Shown in pieces: positions 358 to 12,259 of a DNA stretch of 12,517 nucleotides. This stretch comes from a virus: the UHGV virus genome UHGV-1669581; one strand, written 5' to 3'. The notes below the pieces were generated by a model that was given only the letters and a program-made list of their open reading frames with translations, was not told the DNA's origin and searched no databases. How positions within the stretch are numbered: the first letter of the stretch is position 1; each line of letters opens with the position of its first letter. The position numbers were made by a program, and so were the translations under genes.

Positions 358-414
358 AGCAATCTAGATAATCGTGCAGACTACGCCCCCTCATATCACA
401 TGGAAGGTACTACA

Positions 415-825
415 ATGGCTCAGGTTGCCATTTTTAAACAAATATTCGATAAAGTGCGAAATAATTTAAACTATCACTGGTTTTATTCTGAACTAAAACG
501 TCACAATGTCTCACATTACATTTACTATTTAGCCACAGAGAATATTCATCTTGTTCTTGAAAACGATAATACGGTTTTAATAAAAGGACAGGGTAAGGTT
601 GTAAATGTAAGATTTTCAAAAAATAAATGCCTTATAGAAGCCACCTTAAAAGGATTCAAATCAGGAGAGTTATCATTTTACGAATACAGGAAAAATCTTG
701 CTACAGCAGGGGTTTTCAGATGGATTACAAATATCCACGAAAACAAAAGGTATTACTATACCTTTGATAATTCATTACTCTTTACTGAGAACATTCAGAA
801 CACTACACAAATATTTCCGCACTAA
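415..825 (+). CDS. Hypothetical protein, AT-rich moron; possibly a YbcV/DUF1398-like post-lysis accessory protein
   Basis: Open frame 400..825; the ATG at 415 has a GGAAGG RBS about 9 nt upstream, so 415 is the preferred start. Visibly AT-rich with atypical codon usage. Tyr/Asn-rich sequence with no recognisable catalytic motif. The position past the lysis cassette on the opposite strand matches where DLP12 carries borD/ybcV/ybcW/ylcI. Confidence 0.5.
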
Positions 826-2989: not shown

Positions 2990-3316
2990 TTACTCCTTAG
3001 AGCCACCAAACTTGTTACCGATTACTCTCATTGCAGCCCCACGAATAGCATCAACACCGATCAGCCCCACCCCACCACCAATGGCAACAGATAGTGATTT
3101 AGGCCATCCGACATACTCAAGAGCGGATGCAAAAGTCAGCGTCAGAGCGCCACAGAGTAGAATTTCGAGTGTTTTTCGCTTCCAGCCGCCACCACCGCCA
3201 AAATAGGCAATACGTAAACCAGCCATAACAATCGACATAATCACTGCGCCCAGCGGTGTGTCTCCACGCCACCAGCTCTGGACCAACTCCAGCCATGTAT
3301 TTGGGTTATGAGGCAT
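2990..3316 (-). CDS. S: Class I holin, lambda S-like
   Basis: 108 aa with three hydrophobic segments and a charged C-terminus. The pattern parallels lambda S (GAILAFAMAYLRGRYNGG...IIAWF... versus GAVIMSIVMAGLRIAYFGGGGG...). Sits directly upstream of R with a 3-nt gap. GAGGTGAGAG RBS. Confidence 0.82.
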   Translation of the reverse strand: MPHNPNTWLELVQSWWRGDTPLGAVIMSIVMAGLRIAYFGGGGGWKRKTLEILLCGALTLTFASALEYVGWPKSLSVAIGGGVGLIGVDAIRGAAMRVIGNKFGGSKE

Positions 3317-3454: not shown

Positions 3455-3490
3455 CCCCAGAAACGACAAAACCCGCTCGACGGCGGGTTT
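3455..3490 (-). terminator. Rho-independent terminator-like hairpin (tR'-like position) between the moron and the holin
   Basis: Minus strand: AAACCCGC-cgtcga-GCGGGTTT followed by TGTCGTTTC. Perfect 8-bp inverted repeat at plus coords 3469..3490. Confidence 0.5.
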
Positions 3491-3582
3491 AAGCTGTGTG
3501 GCGAAGTAACCACTCTTAACACATTACATGATAAAATGCGGACCGCGTTAGTAATATTTTTCTCATATATTGGGTTCACTAC

Positions 3583-4329
3583 ATGCGACATAATTTTTCT
3601 AAAGACACTATAAAAAAATTAGCAGAGCGGGCAGCATTCATTTGTTCAAACCCTTCATGCCCTAGATTGACCATTGGCCCATCAATTGATGGCAATAAAT
3701 CAATCAAGACAGGAGTTGCTGCTCACATATGTGCAGCATCTCCTGATGGCCCACGCTATGACATGTCACAATCAGAAACAGAAAGGAAGTCAATTAACAA
3801 TGGCATATGGCTGTGTGCTACTTGTTCTGTATTAATAGATAAGAATCAGGGGCTAGACTATCCGGCACCTGTATTAAGAAAATGGAAAAAAGATCATGAA
3901 AGCCTTATAAGCTCCTGTCTTGAAGGTTCGATTAATATTACCTTCGATGCTTTGAAATATATTCAACAGCATGATGAAAGAAATCTGGCAAAAAAGATTA
4001 TAAATGAATTGGATGATAAAGGGGCTTTGTTCGTAGAATATCATCTTGAAAACCCCTGTTTTGTTGCCGAATCACTCAAAGAGTTAAGAACATGTTTGAC
4101 CTCTTTGCTTTCTCAAATCCCAGATGAATCACCTCTATTTATCGTTTGCAAGTCAATTCGAGAAGCATGCCGTTATTATATGAACAACACTTCTAAAGAC
4201 GCAGGGATTAAAGAGTTAGAATTTTCGTTGGGAGCTGTCAGAAAAATCGTAGGTATCAACGTTAAAAGAATATCAGAAACCTACGGGGTTAAACCTAGCC
4301 CACAATTATCTACCATAATGCCAGATTAA
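3583..4329 (+). CDS. HNH-like nuclease-domain protein with an uncharacterised C-terminal domain; AT-rich moron between Q and the holin (candidate accessory or defence gene)
   Basis: 248-aa ORF on the strand opposite the late genes, visibly AT-rich. The N-terminal ~110 aa carry a zinc-finger HNH-like signature: C21-x4-C26 (CSNPSC), AAH48ICAAS..GPR, N72/N73-G-I-W-L-C78-x2-C81. The C-terminal ~135 aa have no motif I recognise. Followed by its own hairpin terminator. Confidence 0.6.
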   Translation: MRHNFSKDTIKKLAERAAFICSNPSCPRLTIGPSIDGNKSIKTGVAAHICAASPDGPRYDMSQSETERKSINNGIWLCATCSVLIDKNQGLDYPAPVLRKWKKDHESLISSCLEGSINITFDALKYIQQHDERNLAKKIINELDDKGALFVEYHLENPCFVAESLKELRTCLTSLLSQIPDESPLFIVCKSIREACRYYMNNTSKDAGIKELEFSLGAVRKIVGINVKRISETYGVKPSPQLSTIMPD

Positions 4330-4338
4330 ATCTGTTAC

Positions 4339-4381
4339 GCAGCAACAAAGTTAAACTCTATGTTGCTGCCTTAATTTTATT
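4339..4381 (+). terminator. Rho-independent terminator of the moron gene
   Basis: GCAGCAACA-(13-nt loop)-TGTTGCTGC (9-bp stem at 4339..4347 / 4361..4369) followed by CTTAATTTTATT. Begins 10 nt after the moron stop and overlaps the 3' end of the Q gene on the other strand. Confidence 0.65.
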
Positions 4382-4745
4382 ACTCCATTTCTAAACGAAT
4401 ATCCAGCATCGAGAGACAACCATCTATAAACCCTTCAGCCAACTGTATCTCTATACGTATCAATTTCTCATCTTTTTTGTATGCTTTTGCTATCTTCCTT
4501 TTCGAGATGCCATACAGGTAATGAGCCACAATCAGAGAGTGCTCATACGGTTTTCTCTTCTTAAGAAGAGCAAGACAACCTTCAATAATTAATGCATCAC
4601 TATCTGAACAAGCCTGACGTGTTTTGCTTGTGTAGGGAAGAAGCCCCTTAAACCCAGCAGCTATAGGCGAATAGTCTACTCCAGAACTATCACTCGCCGC
4701 CCATGCTCCCCAACGCTCCAGAACCATCTGAATATCACGCATCAA
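4380..4745 (-). CDS. Late-gene antitermination protein Q-like (small, QuuD/DLP12-type)
   Basis: 121 aa, last gene of the early-right operon and immediately upstream of the lysis region. The N-terminus (MRDIQMVLERWGAWAA...AAGFKGL) matches my recollection of small Q-family antiterminators. Cys/His-containing. Confidence 0.6.
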   Translation of the reverse strand: MMRDIQMVLERWGAWAASDSSGVDYSPIAAGFKGLLPYTSKTRQACSDSDALIIEGCLALLKKRKPYEHSLIVAHYLYGISKRKIAKAYKKDEKLIRIEIQLAEGFIDGCLSMLDIRLEME

Positions 4746-4759
4746 CTTTCTCCACCAAA

Positions 4760-5755
4760 TCAGGCCAACACACCAATCGCCAGCGCGCGATCGATAAAAC
4801 GAAATATCAGCTCCAGTTGGGAGCCATACTTCTCTTCAAATGCCACGGTATCCGCATGCAGCTCGTCGTGATGCTTTCTGCACAAAGGCAACACAAAGAG
4901 GTCATGCGCTTTTGTACCCATTCCACCCTGACCGTGACCTATCAGGTGGTGGGGATCATCAGCAGGCTTTCCACAACATGCACACGGCTGTGTCTTAACC
5001 CAGCGCGTGTACTTTTCATTAACCCAGCGGCGGCGTTTTGGGCGTAACATAAAAGACTCCGGCGACTCCGGATCCACTTTCAGCGCCAGCACCTTTTTCG
5101 CCTTATCCTGGATGATGCTGGTGGCAGGAACCGAAGGCACAAGGTCACTTTCCCGGGTGACAGACGGCACAACAGGCTTCGGTAATCTCAGTGCCTTACG
5201 GGCTGCACTTTCCGGTAAGGCATCTGCCAGATCATTACGAATCAGCCACCAGCACAGTTCCGGCATTGTCACAACGTGACTATCATCAAAACCGAGATCC
5301 CGACGCACAACAGACAACACCCAGCGGGCACAGTTATCCGTTGCCATTGATTCCAGCCGTTCCGTGAACTGATCGCGAAGCTGGTTATCGCAGTGCCAGC
5401 ACAGACGGATTGCGCCCGGCGCGTGTCGCATTGTGGTCATATTCTCGCTGTGCCAGTCGGAATGAGGCCACTGGCAGCCTTTTTCACGAAGTAACCAGCT
5501 TTCAAGACATTCCACCCCACCAGCACGACGAATCACTGCCTCATTACGGAACACGGCCAGAACGGCAGGATCATCCGCCAGCGGTTGTGATGCCGCAGGA
5601 ACGGCACCACTGGCGAAAGATGAATAACGCTCCGGCTCAGGCTCCAGCAGAACACGCCCCTGCATAAACAGGGGCATCAGCTCTGAACCTGGCCTGAACA
5701 ATACGATCCCCATACGCGGGGCTATTTCAGGGGTCAGTAGTGCTCTCACGGTCAC
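4760..5755 (-). CDS. DUF968-like phage protein with a C-terminal HNH-like zinc-binding motif
   Basis: 331 aa. The C-terminus (PCACCGKPADDPHHLIGHGQGGMGTKAHDLFVLPLCRKHHDELH) is a Cys/His cluster typical of the DUF968/HNH-like proteins found upstream of Q in lambdoid prophages. 1-nt gap to the upstream KilA-N gene. Confidence 0.55.
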   Translation of the reverse strand: MTVRALLTPEIAPRMGIVLFRPGSELMPLFMQGRVLLEPEPERYSSFASGAVPAASQPLADDPAVLAVFRNEAVIRRAGGVECLESWLLREKGCQWPHSDWHSENMTTMRHAPGAIRLCWHCDNQLRDQFTERLESMATDNCARWVLSVVRRDLGFDDSHVVTMPELCWWLIRNDLADALPESAARKALRLPKPVVPSVTRESDLVPSVPATSIIQDKAKKVLALKVDPESPESFMLRPKRRRWVNEKYTRWVKTQPCACCGKPADDPHHLIGHGQGGMGTKAHDLFVLPLCRKHHDELHADTVAFEEKYGSQLELIFRFIDRALAIGVLA

Positions 5756-5756
5756 C

Positions 5757-6554
5757 TCAATGAACGGTATCGAGCAGCTTTAACAGCTCAGGGAATCGGG
5801 ATTCGAAGAAATGCGGCTGCGTCTCGCGCGGATTTGCGGGACTGGTGATGTTCTTGCCGAACATGCAGCCTTTCGCCGTCAGCGACCAGAATTTTTTAAT
5901 GTTGTTAATTGCGGTACGGCTGTATCGTTCGCGTTGTTCAACGATCCCCAGCTTCACCATCTGGTGATATGCCTGATTAGCCGTAAGGCGGATACCATAC
6001 TGTTTCAGCAGTGCACTCAGCGACAGCGTGGGGCGACTTGAGCCATCAGGCGCGTCAGCAGGAGCATCAATGGCATAGCGCGGTGCCAGATTCGGTAAGC
6101 CAACAGCCTCCTGAAGCTTCTGACAGGCTCCAAGCACTGATGAGTTAGACAGGTTTAATTCCCTGCGCATAAAGTCCAGCAGGATCACGCCAGCCTGCAT
6201 CTTGTCAGCAGCCTGCCCGGATATTTTTTCCGGTGTGCTGGTTACCATATCGAAAGTACGGATCACCTTCAGATGGAATGACGGGCTGATCCACATTGCA
6301 TAGGCATACACCAGTTCTTTGCAGACATACGTCCCCTGGTTATTTCCGCCACGAATAACGTTAACTGGCTCTATATTGACCGAGTTGCAAATCTGCAACT
6401 CGCTTATTAAACGTTCAGTTTGCTCATTGCGGAGCCAGAATGCAGGCTTATGCTTATCCAGAGAACCGGCAGCCCTGTGCAGATCGTTCAGGCTGTAACG
6501 CCCATAAGCATCACGACGAACTTCAATACCATCAATGACCATCAGATTATTCAT
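5757..6554 (-). CDS. KilA-N domain protein
   Basis: N-terminal region GRYSLNDLHRAAG...KPAFWLRNEQTERLISEL...GTYVCKELVYAYAMWISPSFHL fits KilA-N. The ATG at 6554 has a GAGGAG RBS 9 nt upstream and is preferred; the longer frame opens at 6587. Confidence 0.7.
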   Translation of the reverse strand: MNNLMVIDGIEVRRDAYGRYSLNDLHRAAGSLDKHKPAFWLRNEQTERLISELQICNSVNIEPVNVIRGGNNQGTYVCKELVYAYAMWISPSFHLKVIRTFDMVTSTPEKISGQAADKMQAGVILLDFMRRELNLSNSSVLGACQKLQEAVGLPNLAPRYAIDAPADAPDGSSRPTLSLSALLKQYGIRLTANQAYHQMVKLGIVEQRERYSRTAINNIKKFWSLTAKGCMFGKNITSPANPRETQPHFFESRFPELLKLLDTVH

Positions 6555-6573
6555 ACTTCGTTTCTCCTCTTGA

Positions 6574-6963
6574 TCAGGCGGCTGCACCCGCCGGTTTCTC
6601 GTACTTACTGATAGTGATCTCGACCTTCCCTTCCGGGATAACCGGTCCCCACTCCACCAACATTCTTTTCACTTGGCTGTCGTCTTCCCACACACCCGCG
6701 TAGGTCAGGGCGTCAAACAGCGCCTTGTTATAGTTGTCCAGATCGCGGATCCGGTTATCCGGAGGAAACAACACGATCTCCACTGAAGCAGGTGCCGACG
6801 TTGGTTTCGGCAGACGACGTAACTGCTCAACTATTGCTGCGCACGCTGCGCTCTGGAATTTTCGCCCCGCCGCGCTTATCAGGCTCTTACCAGCAAACGC
6901 CCCTTTGTTGGGGTGTCGCCAGTACGTGTTCACGCTGGGCGGAAAAGGCAGGATCAGCTTCAT
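6574..6963 (-). CDS. rusA: RusA-family Holliday junction resolvase
   Basis: LPFPPSVNTYWRH and PDNRIRDLDNYNKALFDALTYAGVWEDDSQV match the RusA signature ([44 protein letters not shown]). ATGA start/stop overlap with the upstream gene. Confidence 0.9.
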   Translation of the reverse strand: MKLILPFPPSVNTYWRHPNKGAFAGKSLISAAGRKFQSAACAAIVEQLRRLPKPTSAPASVEIVLFPPDNRIRDLDNYNKALFDALTYAGVWEDDSQVKRMLVEWGPVIPEGKVEITISKYEKPAGAAA

Positions 6964-7936: not shown

Positions 7937-8430
7937 TAAGCCCCCACGTAATTCCCTGAGAGATACCACTCTTCACCTGATGCAGCCCGCTTACTGCTTT
8001 TCCGTAAACACCGTTCACGACGCGCCAGAAAATTGTTTCGTTCTGGCTGGGAGTGGCTTTCACGGAATGCCGCCATCCACACCGTTGCAGCACGACGGTA
8101 TAAGCCCCTGGACTCCAGTTCTTCCGCCTGGCGGGTCAGGCACAAAATCACCCGCGGGTCGTTAGTGCCGACATAGAAATTGCGCACAGGTCTGGTTTCA
8201 CGAACTGGTTGTGGTTCCGGATCCTGCGCTCTCTCAGTCAGGCGCGGGAAATGTCTGTGTGTATCTCCTTCACAACGGTGAGCCACACGCCCACTCTGAC
8301 GTAGCTTGCTTGCTGACTGCAGAACGCGCTGCCGTGAGTAACCTGCAAAAGCATCCGCAATGTCTCCGGAAGTACAGCCCGGATGGGCTTCAATGAATTT
8401 CTGAACGTCGTTCAAAAGACTCATGCTCAC
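7936..8430 (-). CDS. PerC-like regulator domain protein (C-terminal PerC/Pch-like motif, N-terminal extension)
   Basis: The C-terminal half contains AEELESRGLYRRAATVWMAAF, resembling the PerC/Pch family signature (EKLE.KGLWRRAA.RW) as I recall it. 164 aa; ATGA overlap with the upstream replication gene. Confidence 0.5.
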   Translation of the reverse strand: MSMSLLNDVQKFIEAHPGCTSGDIADAFAGYSRQRVLQSASKLRQSGRVAHRCEGDTHRHFPRLTERAQDPEPQPVRETRPVRNFYVGTNDPRVILCLTRQAEELESRGLYRRAATVWMAAFRESHSQPERNNFLARRERCLRKSSKRAASGEEWYLSGNYVGA

Positions 8431-9368
8431 CCCCTGAATCCTGCCGGGATCTGGCTGTAGTCCACATTGTCGTAACTGGCTTTGAAGTACGGGTCTTCGC
8501 GTTTTTCTGTGTACGTGCTGACGGACGGCGATAAGCGCAGAGAAAGCTCATCCCATTTTTCCCGCAGCTTCGACGGGCTGAGCACGTTACGGCACCAGAA
8601 CGGATCGCGGCTGACGCGGCTGTACATCTCGCAGATTTGTTTGTGAGTACGACCATCCTGCACACACATCAGGCGAATTTCGTTTGCCCAGGCTGTCCAG
8701 TTCGGTTCTTTGGGACGAACCACCTCGCCGTCACATTCGGCAGCCTGCTCGTACAGGGCGATGATTTTTTTCCAGAGCCACTGTGCGCAGGTCAAATCAT
8801 CCTGCGTCCCCCACTGGCGCTTTTTAGGGCTGAATACAACCGCATCAGGATGGCGAGTTAAAAAATCCTGTTCAGCCGTCTGCGTGTCCGGTTGCGAAGC
8901 GTCCGGACGAGAAGGTTTTTTATCTGACGGATCATGTTTTGATTTTACTGACGGATCCCCGCCAGATTCTGACGGGTGAAAACCCGCTTTTTTGCCAGAT
9001 TTCGACGCATCAAATTTTGACGGGTCAGATTTTGATGCGTCAGATTTTGACGGGTCAGAATCTGACAGTTGAGAAAATGCCGCTGCCTGAAGCTTCGCAA
9101 CGTTAAGCTGATAAACATTCGACGCATTGCGGTTACCCTGGCGACGCGCCTTACGCGTTAACCAGCCTTCTGCTTCCAGCCGTGCGATAGCCGTTCTGAC
9201 GGTACTCATCCCCGCGCCAATCTGACGGGCAATAGTTTCAATTGATGGCCAGCACACACCTTCGTCATTACTGAAATCAGCCAGGCGGGCCATAATTGCC
9301 ACGCTGGATAATTTCATGCCTGATGCAGCGCAACCATCCCATACATAGCCGGTTAATTTAGTGCTCAT
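8427..9368 (-). CDS. Replication initiator protein with N-terminal HTH (O-like), carrying internal iterons
   Basis: N-terminus (SSVAIMARLADFSNDEGVCWPSIETIARQIGAGMSTVRTAIARLEAEGWL) matches the replication-protein HTH pattern common in prophages. The central low-complexity tract (SDSDPSKSDASKSDPSKFDASKSGKK) is encoded by tandem DNA repeats. Confidence 0.75.
   Translation of the reverse strand: MSTKLTGYVWDGCAASGMKLSSVAIMARLADFSNDEGVCWPSIETIARQIGAGMSTVRTAIARLEAEGWLTRKARRQGNRNASNVYQLNVAKLQAAAFSQLSDSDPSKSDASKSDPSKFDASKSGKKAGFHPSESGGDPSVKSKHDPSDKKPSRPDASQPDTQTAEQDFLTRHPDAVVFSPKKRQWGTQDDLTCAQWLWKKIIALYEQAAECDGEVVRPKEPNWTAWANEIRLMCVQDGRTHKQICEMYSRVSRDPFWCRNVLSPSKLREKWDELSLRLSPSVSTYTEKREDPYFKASYDNVDYSQIPAGFRG
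8921..9069. repeat. Iteron-like tandem direct repeats (~15-bp period, ~8 copies) inside the replication initiator gene; putative origin
   Basis: Units such as CAGATTCTGACGGGTG, CAGATTTCGACGCATC, AAATTTTGACGGGTC, AGATTTTGATGCGTC, AGATTTTGACGGGTC, AGAATCTGACAGTT. Analogous to ori-lambda iterons inside gene O. Confidence 0.6.
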
Positions 9369-10614: not shown

Positions 10615-11307
10615 ATGAACATAGGAAACCGAGTCAGACAACTTCGCCAAGCGAAGAACATGAAAATCGCCGATCTCGCTGAAGCAATAGGAGTAGATGC
10701 GGCGAACATCTCGCGCTTAGAAACGGGTAAGCAAAAACAATTTACCGAACAAACACTGAGTAATATTGCCAAGAGCTTAGGTGTTGATATTGCTGATCTC
10801 TTTACCTCTGCCCACAAAAGTAATACTGTATATAAAAACAGTAATAATGAGGATGTTGCGCAGGTGAAGGATGTGTTCCGTATTGAAATGCTGGATATCA
10901 GTGCCAGTGCGGGAAATGGCCTTATCCAGGGCGGTGATGTCATTGATGTGATTCATGCCATCGAATACAGAACTGATAATGCTGTATCAATGTTCGGCGG
11001 ACGACCAGCCAATCACATCAAAGTTATCAACGTTCGTGGGGACAGTATGTGTCCAACCATTGAGCCAGGAGATCTCATCTTCGTTGATGTCAGCATCAAT
11101 CAGTTTGATGGTGATGGTATATATGTCTTTGGTTTTGATGACAAAATATACGTTAAAAGACTTCAAATGATTCCTGACAAACTGCTGGTGATTTCTGATA
11201 ACCAGATTTACCGTGAATGGGGAATTACTAGCGAAAACGAACACCGATTCATGGTCTTTGGAAAGGTCTTAATCAGTCAGTCGCAAACCCTTAAGAGACA
11301 TAATTAA
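10615..11307 (+). CDS. cI: CI-type prophage repressor (N-terminal HTH, C-terminal S24 LexA-like autopeptidase)
   Basis: HTH (MKIADLAEAIGVDAANISRLETGK) plus an S24 domain with catalytic Ser in VRGDSMCPTIEPGD and Lys in KIYVKRL. A candidate Ala-Gly cleavage site lies in ASAGNG. Confidence 0.9.
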   Translation: MNIGNRVRQLRQAKNMKIADLAEAIGVDAANISRLETGKQKQFTEQTLSNIAKSLGVDIADLFTSAHKSNTVYKNSNNEDVAQVKDVFRIEMLDISASAGNGLIQGGDVIDVIHAIEYRTDNAVSMFGGRPANHIKVINVRGDSMCPTIEPGDLIFVDVSINQFDGDGIYVFGFDDKIYVKRLQMIPDKLLVISDNQIYREWGITSENEHRFMVFGKVLISQSQTLKRHN

Positions 11308-11646: not shown

Positions 11647-11853
11647 ATGCACAAAACAGAACCCAAAATCGTCGCGCCTGGCTACACAGATGAGGAAATT
11701 TATGAGTGGATGACAAAGAAGCTGGCAGCTATAAACCAGCTTCGTGAAGTGCTGTCTTATCGACAGGAAACAATAGACGCCTTAAAAAAACTGGATCAGG
11801 AAATCACGGTTTTATCACAGGATGTTACTTTAGATATTGTGCAGACAAATTAG
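11647..11853 (+). CDS. Hypothetical small protein (68 aa), first ORF downstream of the pL-like region; not N-like
   Basis: ATG at 11647 with a GAGGAG RBS 7 nt upstream; the ORF track's 11632 start is a TTG. Acidic/helical sequence with no arginine-rich motif. AT-rich. Its 3' end overlaps the convergent ORF by 29 nt. Confidence 0.45.
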   Translation: MHKTEPKIVAPGYTDEEIYEWMTKKLAAINQLREVLSYRQETIDALKKLDQEITVLSQDVTLDIVQTN

Positions 11854-12259
11854 GATCCCATTCATTTTCGTCAAAATCATCAAAGTGATGAATTTGTGAT
11901 CTCCAGTCTCGATAATCTAAAAATTTCTGGGCGGTTACGCTTATTTTATCAAGTGTGAGTTCATCCTGAATTGAAAGAAGAAGTTCATCAAATTTCATCT
12001 CATTAATCTGTTTTGGCATCCAGTGATGCTTCATCAGAATAAGGTGAACCAGAGCCTTTTTCCCATTCAACTGATTATAGGGAGTGCCGAATTTCTTCCG
12101 GTGCTCATGTAAGACAAGGTCCAAAAGAGTAAGTAATGTTGCCCTTGATTCAACTTTGCTTATTTCGACTGATGACACTACCCCACTGATTTCAATGCCC
12201 CGATACTTTCCAACATTTTCACAGTGGGATTTGTACAGCGTATAGATATTACCGGACAT
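11825..12259 (-). CDS. Hypothetical protein (144 aa), AT-rich moron convergent with the early-left ORF
   Basis: Good RBS (AAAAGGAAAAGAAA-ATG). Visibly AT-rich with atypical codon usage. No recognisable domain; the C-terminus is acidic (FDDFDENEWDP). Direct repeats lie upstream. Confidence 0.55.
   Translation of the reverse strand: MSGNIYTLYKSHCENVGKYRGIEISGVVSSVEISKVESRATLLTLLDLVLHEHRKKFGTPYNQLNGKKALVHLILMKHHWMPKQINEMKFDELLLSIQDELTLDKISVTAQKFLDYRDWRSQIHHFDDFDENEWDPNLSAQYLK

Follow-up and report, generated by a model that had tools for sequence, protein, structure and literature searches.

An HNH–DUF6650 fusion gene between Q and the holin of a lambdoid prophage: a candidate single-protein anti-phage nuclease

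Introduction

What is the function of a solitary gene that lies between the antiterminator gene Q and the holin gene of a lambdoid prophage of E. coli and reads against the late operon? The question is raised by the virus genome UHGV-1669581, of which a stretch of 12,517 nucleotides (the window) was analysed here, and in which a single gene for a protein of 248 amino acids, referred to below as the cargo gene, occupies the Q-to-holin (Q–S) interval. A preliminary description of this locus had placed the gene there on the strand opposite the late operon, which is borne out by the list of open reading frames (ORFs) and by the Pfam matches of both neighbours (PF06530 and PF05106). It had further proposed an HNH-like nuclease joined to a C-terminal part without recognisable relatives, acting as a single-gene anti-phage or abortive-infection effector. 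We find that the protein joins an HNH domain of a clade used by known immune effectors to a DUF6650 domain, and we suggest, at a probability of roughly 0.55, that it is an autonomous one-protein anti-phage DNase of the abortive-infection type, carried as lysogenic-conversion cargo in a Q–S hotspot. Both domains, this kind of slot and a computational flag on the protein were already known.

Results

An HNH nuclease domain of the Cap5 and SPARHA clade

The nuclease-like character proposed for the N-terminal half of the cargo protein holds, and the evidence supports its assignment to the clade of HNH domains found in CBASS Cap5, SPARHA and some Shedu effectors. The PADLOC models that match residues 1 to ~115–130 are led by PDC-M68A (E 7.5e-27), and include CBASS 'Effector Endonuclease' models with E values down to 4.8e-21 and SAVED_HNH (E 4e-19). 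Among PDB sequences, the best match to a profile of 52 homologues is the SPARHA HNH effector 9OM4 (E 1e-13, residues 9–121), and several Cap5 entries are also retrieved. An AlphaFold2 model of the full protein (mean pLDDT 89.9, pTM 0.86) gave significant Foldseek matches in the PDB solely to Cap5 entries (probability 1.00). With the local Pfam models, the full protein yielded a marginal HNH_2 match (E 0.086), and the NCBIfam scan gave none.

The HNH-like residues noted previously (C21-x4-C26, H48 within AAHI, N72/N73 and C78-x2-C81) are correctly positioned in the translation, and C21, C26, H48, N73, C78, C81, D86 and N88 are invariant in the alignment of 52 homologues. The preliminary description would have been refuted by variation of the HNH-like residues across homologues, which is not what the alignment shows. 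H48 is aligned with the histidine of the aHI motif in SPARHA (9om4) and Cap5 (8ysq and 7rwk). A catalytic histidine on a β-hairpin, a conserved asparagine, a metal ligand on a helix, a cysteine-rich knuckle and similarity of fold are all present, and the alignment suggests roles for N73, D86, N88 and C21/C26/C78/C81 as asparagine, metal ligand and zinc knuckle. The domain is intact and is predicted to have DNase activity. Cap5 is described in PDB entry titles as a ligand-bound 'activated tetramer', and, according to the SPARHA report, the SPARHA HNH is activated by assembly into filaments and degrades DNA collaterally. In the two settings where it has been characterised, the clade cleaves DNA indiscriminately once assembly has switched it on.

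The similarity to each of these systems ends at the nuclease domain. Cap5, an HNH-SAVED protein of ~370–390 amino acids, is considerably longer than the cargo protein, which has no SAVED domain and carries instead a helical DUF6650 bundle of ~130 amino acids; nor does the cargo operon contain a CD-NTase or other signal synthase, its neighbours in the window being Q and the holin. The HNH-APAZ protein of SPARHA shares the HNH domain with the cargo protein, which lacks both APAZ and the short prokaryotic Argonaute partner, such that the regulatory domains are entirely different. The match to PDC-M68 protein A stops at ~130 of the 253 model positions, and PDC-M68 is a multi-gene PADLOC candidate, whereas the cargo gene is partnerless. 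ORF2 of the P2-EC46 Z-region (phrog_34329) has an HNH module with 50% identity over residues 2–109 and a different C-terminal domain; like the cargo gene, it and PDC-M68 protein A are prophage lysogenic-conversion or defence-candidate genes. For Shedu SduA, only the N-terminal accessory region (positions 17–124) matches residues 4–117 (E 4.7e-8), and the cargo protein lacks the DUF4263 PD-(D/E)XK core.

A C-terminal DUF6650 domain close to the standalone branch

The C-terminal ~135 amino acids, reported in the preliminary description to match nothing, are on profile comparison a DUF6650 domain (PF20355) that is closest to the standalone branch of this superfamily. An alignment of residues 116–248 from 19 sequences matched a profile of 20 standalone DUF6650 proteins of 150–170 amino acids at 99.94% in hhalign (E 1e-36, 130 columns). 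The cargo protein is identical to RefSeq WP_001406331.1, which PGAP names 'DUF6650 family protein', and the precomputed PF20355.5 label is found on all 120 homologues listed. In the AlphaFold2 model this half is all-helical, with helices at 121–243. Within it, E156, S164, R169, R220 and K221 are invariant among the 52 homologues and C196 and R197 nearly so, and a pattern of E156, S164, R169 ('EIR'), C196-R197 ('ACR'), L216/G217/R220 and P247 is common to fused and standalone domains.

The older local model PF20355.3 did not match the cargo C-terminal half, whether the full protein or the half was scanned, and matched standalone DUF6650 proteins at E ~1e-16; as this model is blind to the fused domain, homology was tested independently by hhalign. 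PF20355.3 detects neither the HNH-fused domain nor the ThsG proteins with transmembrane (TM) helices discussed below, both of which carry PGAP or PF20355.5 labels, and scans with the older Pfam would therefore label the C-terminal half 'unknown'.

An exhaustive HMMER search with the DUF6650-domain profile returned 1162 representative clusters, 457 of them at E <= 1e-10. These are mostly standalone proteins of 150–180 amino acids, some with N-terminal TM helices, and one cluster bears an extra N-terminal domain ahead of HNH-DUF6650. When the C-terminal profile was used in a word-indexed search, nothing emerged beyond this family and truncated gene calls starting at M61, and a structure search of BFVD gave no significant match.

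DUF6650 in known anti-phage systems

The description of the locus as an undescribed system does not stand, since DUF6650 was linked to defence in 2025–26 by two studies and the protein itself is already on a list of predicted defence genes. DefensePredictor (Science 2026, PMC13092281) names five DUFs as 'newly implicated in defense', DUF6650 being one of them. Its prediction table (supplementary file 3) includes WP_001406331.1 as a 'Predicted novel defense gene' with a mean log-odds of 8.58, its nearest known relative being an HNH of the Type II restriction endonuclease class at 35% coverage; the protein is absent from the tables of tested systems (DS-1 to DS-42). One validated system of that study, DS-27 ('SMEK', WP_087896215.1), is a single gene of E. 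coli without a TIR gene, encoding 299 amino acids, to which the authors assign a C-terminal DUF6650 at 169–292 (HHpred 0.88). DS-27 protects alone, and hence a one-protein system annotated with DUF6650 can defend by itself, although its N-terminal domain is SMEK and that of the cargo protein is HNH.

The second study (preprint 10.64898/2025.12.03.692087) describes 255 operons of a TIR gene and a DUF6650 gene as type VI Thoeris (ThsB and ThsG), in which the effector ThsG responds specifically to 2'cADPR. In the AlphaFold3 model given there, ThsG forms a homo-hexameric tube, and the pockets where protomers adjoin are positively charged; TM helices are often present at the N terminus, and the mechanism of toxicity is described as unclear for members without them. 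HNH fusions are not mentioned in the preprint. ThsG and the cargo protein bear the same PF20355 label, have helical domains of about equal size, are found in prophage hotspots of E. coli and join DUF6650 to a killing module, namely TM helices in the former and HNH in the latter. They differ in that ThsG has an adjacent ThsB/TIR gene, whereas the cargo family has none at any locus examined.

The query for retrieving ThsG was the validated ThsB of E. coli ACN001 (Table S1 of 10.64898/2025.12.03.692087), which led to 19 P2-like viral contigs with portal and terminase genes adjoining, each with an ORF for a TM-containing ThsG directly upstream of the TIR gene. Three diverged ThsG–ThsB operons were also found on Firmicutes plasmids (Priestia, Lactiplantibacillus and Listeria), in the same gene order. 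The validated E. coli type VI Thoeris is thus itself prophage cargo, as seen beside the P2-like portal and terminase genes of one IMG/VR contig (L221, 3270–4618).

A gene without a conserved partner

Full-length homologues of the cargo protein (42–95% identity) span Pseudomonadota and Bacteroidota, and the two-domain architecture is kept across these phyla. The family is mostly non-phage, residing in chromosomal islands across phyla; the cargo protein itself is present at 100% identity on 6 IMG/VR viral contigs, and a locus of E. coli GCUET01 is identical to the cargo locus in DNA sequence. Among 5426 complete E. coli genomes, 25 carry the cargo variant and 15 a variant of ~70% identity.

At ~39 full-length loci, which came from reference genomes, IMG/VR and contigs with exact matches, clustering of the flanking ORFs revealed no conserved partner. 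Likewise, a Pfam scan of 142 neighbour ORFs from 31 loci found no recurring TIR, SMODS or NTP_transf/cyclase family; the neighbours comprise ATPases of the AAA_21, AAA_15 and SMC types, PIN, nSTAND1, methylases and integrases, and the copy in Hydrogenophaga adjoins HEPN_AbiV and DUF4062 genes. A two-gene system, a toxin–antitoxin pair and a restriction–modification pair were rejected on these results, and the view of the cargo gene as a stand-alone unit is supported.

The same neighbourhoods bear on the possibility that the nuclease serves the phage, either constitutively or directed by sequence or modification, as a solitary restriction-like or superinfection-exclusion endonuclease, a homing endonuclease or a packaging-associated HNH, with the C-terminal bundle providing only dimerisation or DNA binding. 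HK97- and P27-type prophages use HNH proteins with their terminase. Indeed, a related prophage (L001) has an HNH gene beside its terminase; this is a separate gene, however, and the packaging HNH is thus not the cargo gene. The restriction-type relative reported by DefensePredictor and the weak HNH_2 match would also fit such a nuclease. Yet the loci show neither a conserved methyltransferase in the vicinity (N6_N4_Mtase accounts for 2 of the 142 neighbours) nor signs of an intron or intein, the gene lies outside the late operon and on the opposite strand, and most of the family is not in phages. Moreover, the HNH domains nearest to its own all belong to regulated effectors of immunity, and the invariant charged residues of its C-terminal half are common to standalone DUF6650 proteins that have no nuclease. 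We consider a phage-serving nuclease highly unlikely.

Searches by tblastn with 11 ThsB TIR queries gave no matches in the window, at 135 loci of the HNH domain or at 80 standalone DUF6650 loci, the latter found with an alignment of 7 sequences, and recovered 19 of 19 positive controls. The sampled standalone proteins are thus TIR-less (57–80 loci), and, set against the 255 TIR-linked operons, this indicates that TIR-linked ThsG is a minority of the family. At the standalone loci, which are metagenomic (L141–L220), genes for calcineurin-like metallophosphoesterases recur (5 of 88 neighbours) and DUF5677 and helix-turn-helix genes also occur, such that these neighbours may point to other partner types.

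An orphan effector of the type VI Thoeris kind would bind 2'cADPR, or another cyclic ADP-ribose (cADPR) isomer, made by an unlinked TIR protein, so that the prophage 'eavesdrops' on that system and kills through HNH. DUF6650 is the 2'cADPR-responsive domain of ThsG (10.64898/2025.12.03.692087), an HNH fusion would supply a killing mechanism for a ThsG without TM helices, and type VI Thoeris of the ACN001 type is present, in P2-like prophages, in 42 of the 5426 complete E. coli genomes, one of which, strain LT2-3, also carries the cargo variant. However, the operon is missing from the other 24 of 25 carriers, and a single co-occurrence, where chance alone would give ~0.2, is not meaningful; no TIR gene lies near any of the ~39 full-length loci, validated ThsG is a remote relative with different conserved residues, and the closest relatives, the standalone proteins, are TIR-less. 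Dependence on a co-resident type VI Thoeris was rejected on the genome overlap of 1 in 25, and an orphan effector of this kind appears to us quite unlikely.

A further alternative is counter-defence, in which DUF6650 would sequester a Thoeris-type signal, as the Tad1 and Tad2 sponges do, and thereby shield the prophage or its progeny from TIR immunity of the host. The gene is phage-borne, the DUF6650 of ThsG responds to a cADPR isomer, and among the phage families of PHROGs is one of standalone DUF6650-like proteins (phrog_29952). Against this, DUF6650 is here fused to an intact, invariant nuclease site, most members are chromosomal and beside defence genes, the gene occupies a lysogenic-conversion position outside the lytic operons, and DefensePredictor scores the protein as defence. 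Counter-defence is therefore extremely improbable.

An exchangeable slot between Q and the late operon

The proposal that the Q–S interval is a cargo slot is upheld by the comparison of related prophages. Family members of 56–60% identity are found at this position between Q and the lysis genes, likewise antisense, in two further prophage lineages, one in E. coli (L004, with different holins) and one in Buttiauxella (L014 and L102). Prophages with the holin of the window and ~230–250 bp of its upstream sequence carry other antisense cargo. In E. coli E67 this consists of WP_000355468.1 and WP_000150292.1, which are the validated DefensePredictor system DS-1 ('D390'). The presence of DS-1 at the same place in a sister prophage indicates that the interval between Q and the late promoter PR' is an exchangeable defence hotspot with antisense orientation. 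In all compared prophages the cargo abuts or overlaps the stop codon of Q, and position, atypical composition, own orientation and replacement among related prophages are all as in a moron or lysogenic-conversion gene.

DS-1 in E67 (L139, 2809–5201) comprises a YejK-like nucleoid-associated protein and a protein of 404 amino acids. The slot of strain 3-72 (L140, 2928–4416) holds two uncharacterised genes, of 301 and 191 amino acids, which are defence candidates by position.

The borders of the slot and the elements within it are listed in Table 1. The cargo gene is indeed AT-rich, with a GC content of 0.376 (0.30 at third codon positions), while the window as a whole has 0.481 and the adjoining DUF968 gene 0.551; that of Q, at 0.423, is also fairly low. 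The interval as first delimited, 3583–4381, runs at its end 1–2 bases into the Q stop codon. Downstream of the holin lie the genes for an endolysin and Rz.

Table 1. Features of the Q–holin slot in the window
Feature	Coordinates	Strand	Basis or remarks
HNH-DUF6650 cargo gene	3583..4329	+	ORF list; ATG start, 248 amino acids, stop codon included
Cap5/SPARHA-type HNH nuclease domain with Cys4 zinc knuckle	3583..3927	+	residues 1 to ~115
DUF6650 (PF20355) helical-bundle domain	3934..4326	+	residues ~118–248
Stable hairpin between the convergent stops (cargo 4329, Q 4380)	4339..4369	.	RNA fold, 9-bp GC-rich stem
Q antiterminator gene, upstream slot border	4380..4745	-	PF06530, E 1.9e-52
Conserved block of ~65 bp, probable late-operon promoter/qut leader	3490..3553	-	alignment of window, E67, 3-72 and L004
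Intrinsic-terminator-like hairpin with T-run, putatively tR'-like	3469..3490	-	terminator scan: 8-bp stem, 5 GC pairs, tail TGTCGTTTCT
Lambda-family holin S, downstream slot border	2990..3316	-	PF05106, E 5.7e-25

The strong terminator attributed to the cargo gene is retained in part. Cargo and Q converge, and the 50 bp that separate their stop codons contain a stable hairpin, with a folding free energy of -15.2 kcal/mol (z -4.55) on the plus strand and -16.1 kcal/mol (z -4.26) on the minus strand, but its U-tract is broken (CUUAAUUUUA) and it was not called by the consensus terminator scan. It may act as a bidirectional terminator on both strands.

The conserved block lies immediately upstream of every slot cargo, even where the holin region is unrelated (L004). 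It is present in ~2600 of the 5426 E. coli genomes, always unannotated, and also upstream of essD in DLP12. Next to it, on the late-operon strand and 150 bp upstream of the holin start, lies the second hairpin, the fold of which is unexceptional against shuffled sequences (z -0.95). By analogy with the layout of lambdoid late operons, the block is probably the late promoter and qut leader, with a tR'-like terminator, of QuuD/e14-type prophages; a promoter scan of the block found nothing, and Rfam gave no match in the whole window. If the block is the late promoter, the site of cargo insertion lies between Q and PR', and late transcription does not run through the cargo.

In E. coli TOP10 (L244, 2501–2889), the leader block upstream of essD leads directly into murB/birA rather than into nmpC/quuD, which indicates a rearrangement or deletion breakpoint in the Q–S interval of DLP12.

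Weighing a proposed one-protein defence system

A single-gene defence system of the abortive-infection type is the best-supported reading of the cargo gene, because the HNH domain is intact and of an immune-effector clade, DUF6650 has links to defence, the DefensePredictor score is high, the gene is solitary, the island neighbours include defence genes, and a validated system, DS-1, occupies the same slot. To this extent the function first proposed is sustained, as a function deduced for a partnerless gene.

Several results weigh against this reading, among them the distance of the cargo domain from validated DUF6650 proteins. A profile of 10 ThsG sequences, covering the E. coli ACN001 type and those of Firmicutes plasmids, aligned with the standalone DUF6650 profile at 21% (82 columns, E 0.001) and with the cargo C-terminal domain at 0.5% (E 0.11), both in the same register. 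The conserved motifs also differ, being LNxFLTxHQNxYRRW in ThsG and ACRHYMN in the cargo family, as does the effector part (TM helices and nuclease, respectively). Validated ThsG is thus, as judged from these alignments, a remote relative rather than a close one. The weak scores and different motifs make ligand sensing and ring formation extrapolations, and the cargo domain cannot be assumed to bind 2'cADPR. Nor was the relation of DS-27 to DUF6650 reproduced when the cargo C-terminal and standalone profiles were compared by hhalign with the single DS-27 sequence. The four- to five-helix bundle of the model matches only generic or designed bundles, the consensus sigma-70 promoter scan found no promoter for the cargo gene (and none for PR'), and in the searchable literature neither this protein nor any other HNH-DUF6650 fusion has a phenotype on record.

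Comparisons with single ThsG sequences (E. coli and Aureispira) by hhalign gave nothing significant. The Aureispira protein, which is TIR-linked and plasmid-borne, has the ThsG-type motif, belongs to the ThsG clade and does not match the cargo domain; it was the best plasmid match when the Bacillus-type ThsG without TM helices was sought through its ThsB, a search that returned no viral contig.

As an anti-phage nuclease, the cargo protein could work as follows. By analogy with the hexamers of ThsG and with the part taken by SAVED and APAZ in effectors of the same HNH clade, the DUF6650 domain would be both sensor and assembly module, forming a ring whose basic inter-protomer pockets take up a small ligand, probably derived from a nucleotide, or some other cue of infection. 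This trigger, which would not come from a dedicated adjacent TIR enzyme, would drive assembly or rearrangement and bring the HNH domains into an active arrangement, as in the tetramers of Cap5 and the filaments of SPARHA. The activated nuclease would then degrade DNA indiscriminately, such that phage replication stops and the infected cell is lost. The position of the gene between Q and the probable late promoter, reading away from that promoter and insulated from Q by the hairpin, would allow expression in the lysogen with no late transcription running across the gene.

Should the gene prove to be a functional defence system, DUF6650 would be a portable regulatory module for varied killing domains, as exemplified by the TM helices of ThsG, SMEK in DS-27 and the Cap5-type HNH here, and most members of the family would operate without a dedicated TIR signal generator. 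The family would then offer a handle on how the TIR-less majority of DUF6650 proteins is activated, and the Q–PR' interval of e14- and DLP12-like lambdoid prophages would be useful for mining further systems.

A broader generalisation, which is doubtful as it stands, is that DUF6650 is a widespread and mostly TIR-independent sensor and assembly module, of which the prophage HNH-DUF6650 protein represents a self-contained sensor–effector with a collateral DNase like that of Cap5. Such proteins would respond directly to a phage product or to a small molecule arising from infection, or else exploit the signals of unlinked systems. If true, this would amount to a new single-protein immune system of the signalling type and would explain killing by DUF6650 proteins without TM helices. 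In the searchable literature, we found neither the HNH-DUF6650 fusion nor TIR-less operation of its branch described or tested.

Other features of the prophage

Downstream of the lysis cassette lies a second antisense, very AT-rich cargo region (GC 0.32; 124–357 and 400–825, plus strand), which encodes a 77-amino-acid ORF and a DUF1398 protein (PF07166, E 3e-43) with a weak HEPN_AbiA_CTD match (E 0.014). The PHROGs label 'head protein' on the DUF1398 protein seems unlikely to be correct, and at the same position DLP12 has a YbcV-like protein next to bor.

The region beyond a cI-like repressor is a classic site of lysogenic conversion. In the window, the repressor gene (10615–11307) is followed by a gene of low GC content (0.38) for an ECs1072-family phage-associated protein (11825–12259, minus strand; NF033230, E 1.7e-46).

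Just upstream of Q, the DUF968 protein (4760–5755, minus strand) has a C-terminal nuclease motif of the HNHc_6 type (E 4e-6) and is thus a second, unrelated HNH-like protein, encoded in the early-right operon. Two proteins with KilA-N domains are encoded at 1366–1863 and 5757–6587. Finally, a gene for a replication-initiator-like protein of 313 amino acids (8427–9368) contains a 15-bp unit, CAGATTTTGACGGGT, that is repeated 4.3 times (8996–9059) and encodes a SKSDxSK stretch; these repeats are probably the iterons of the phage origin.

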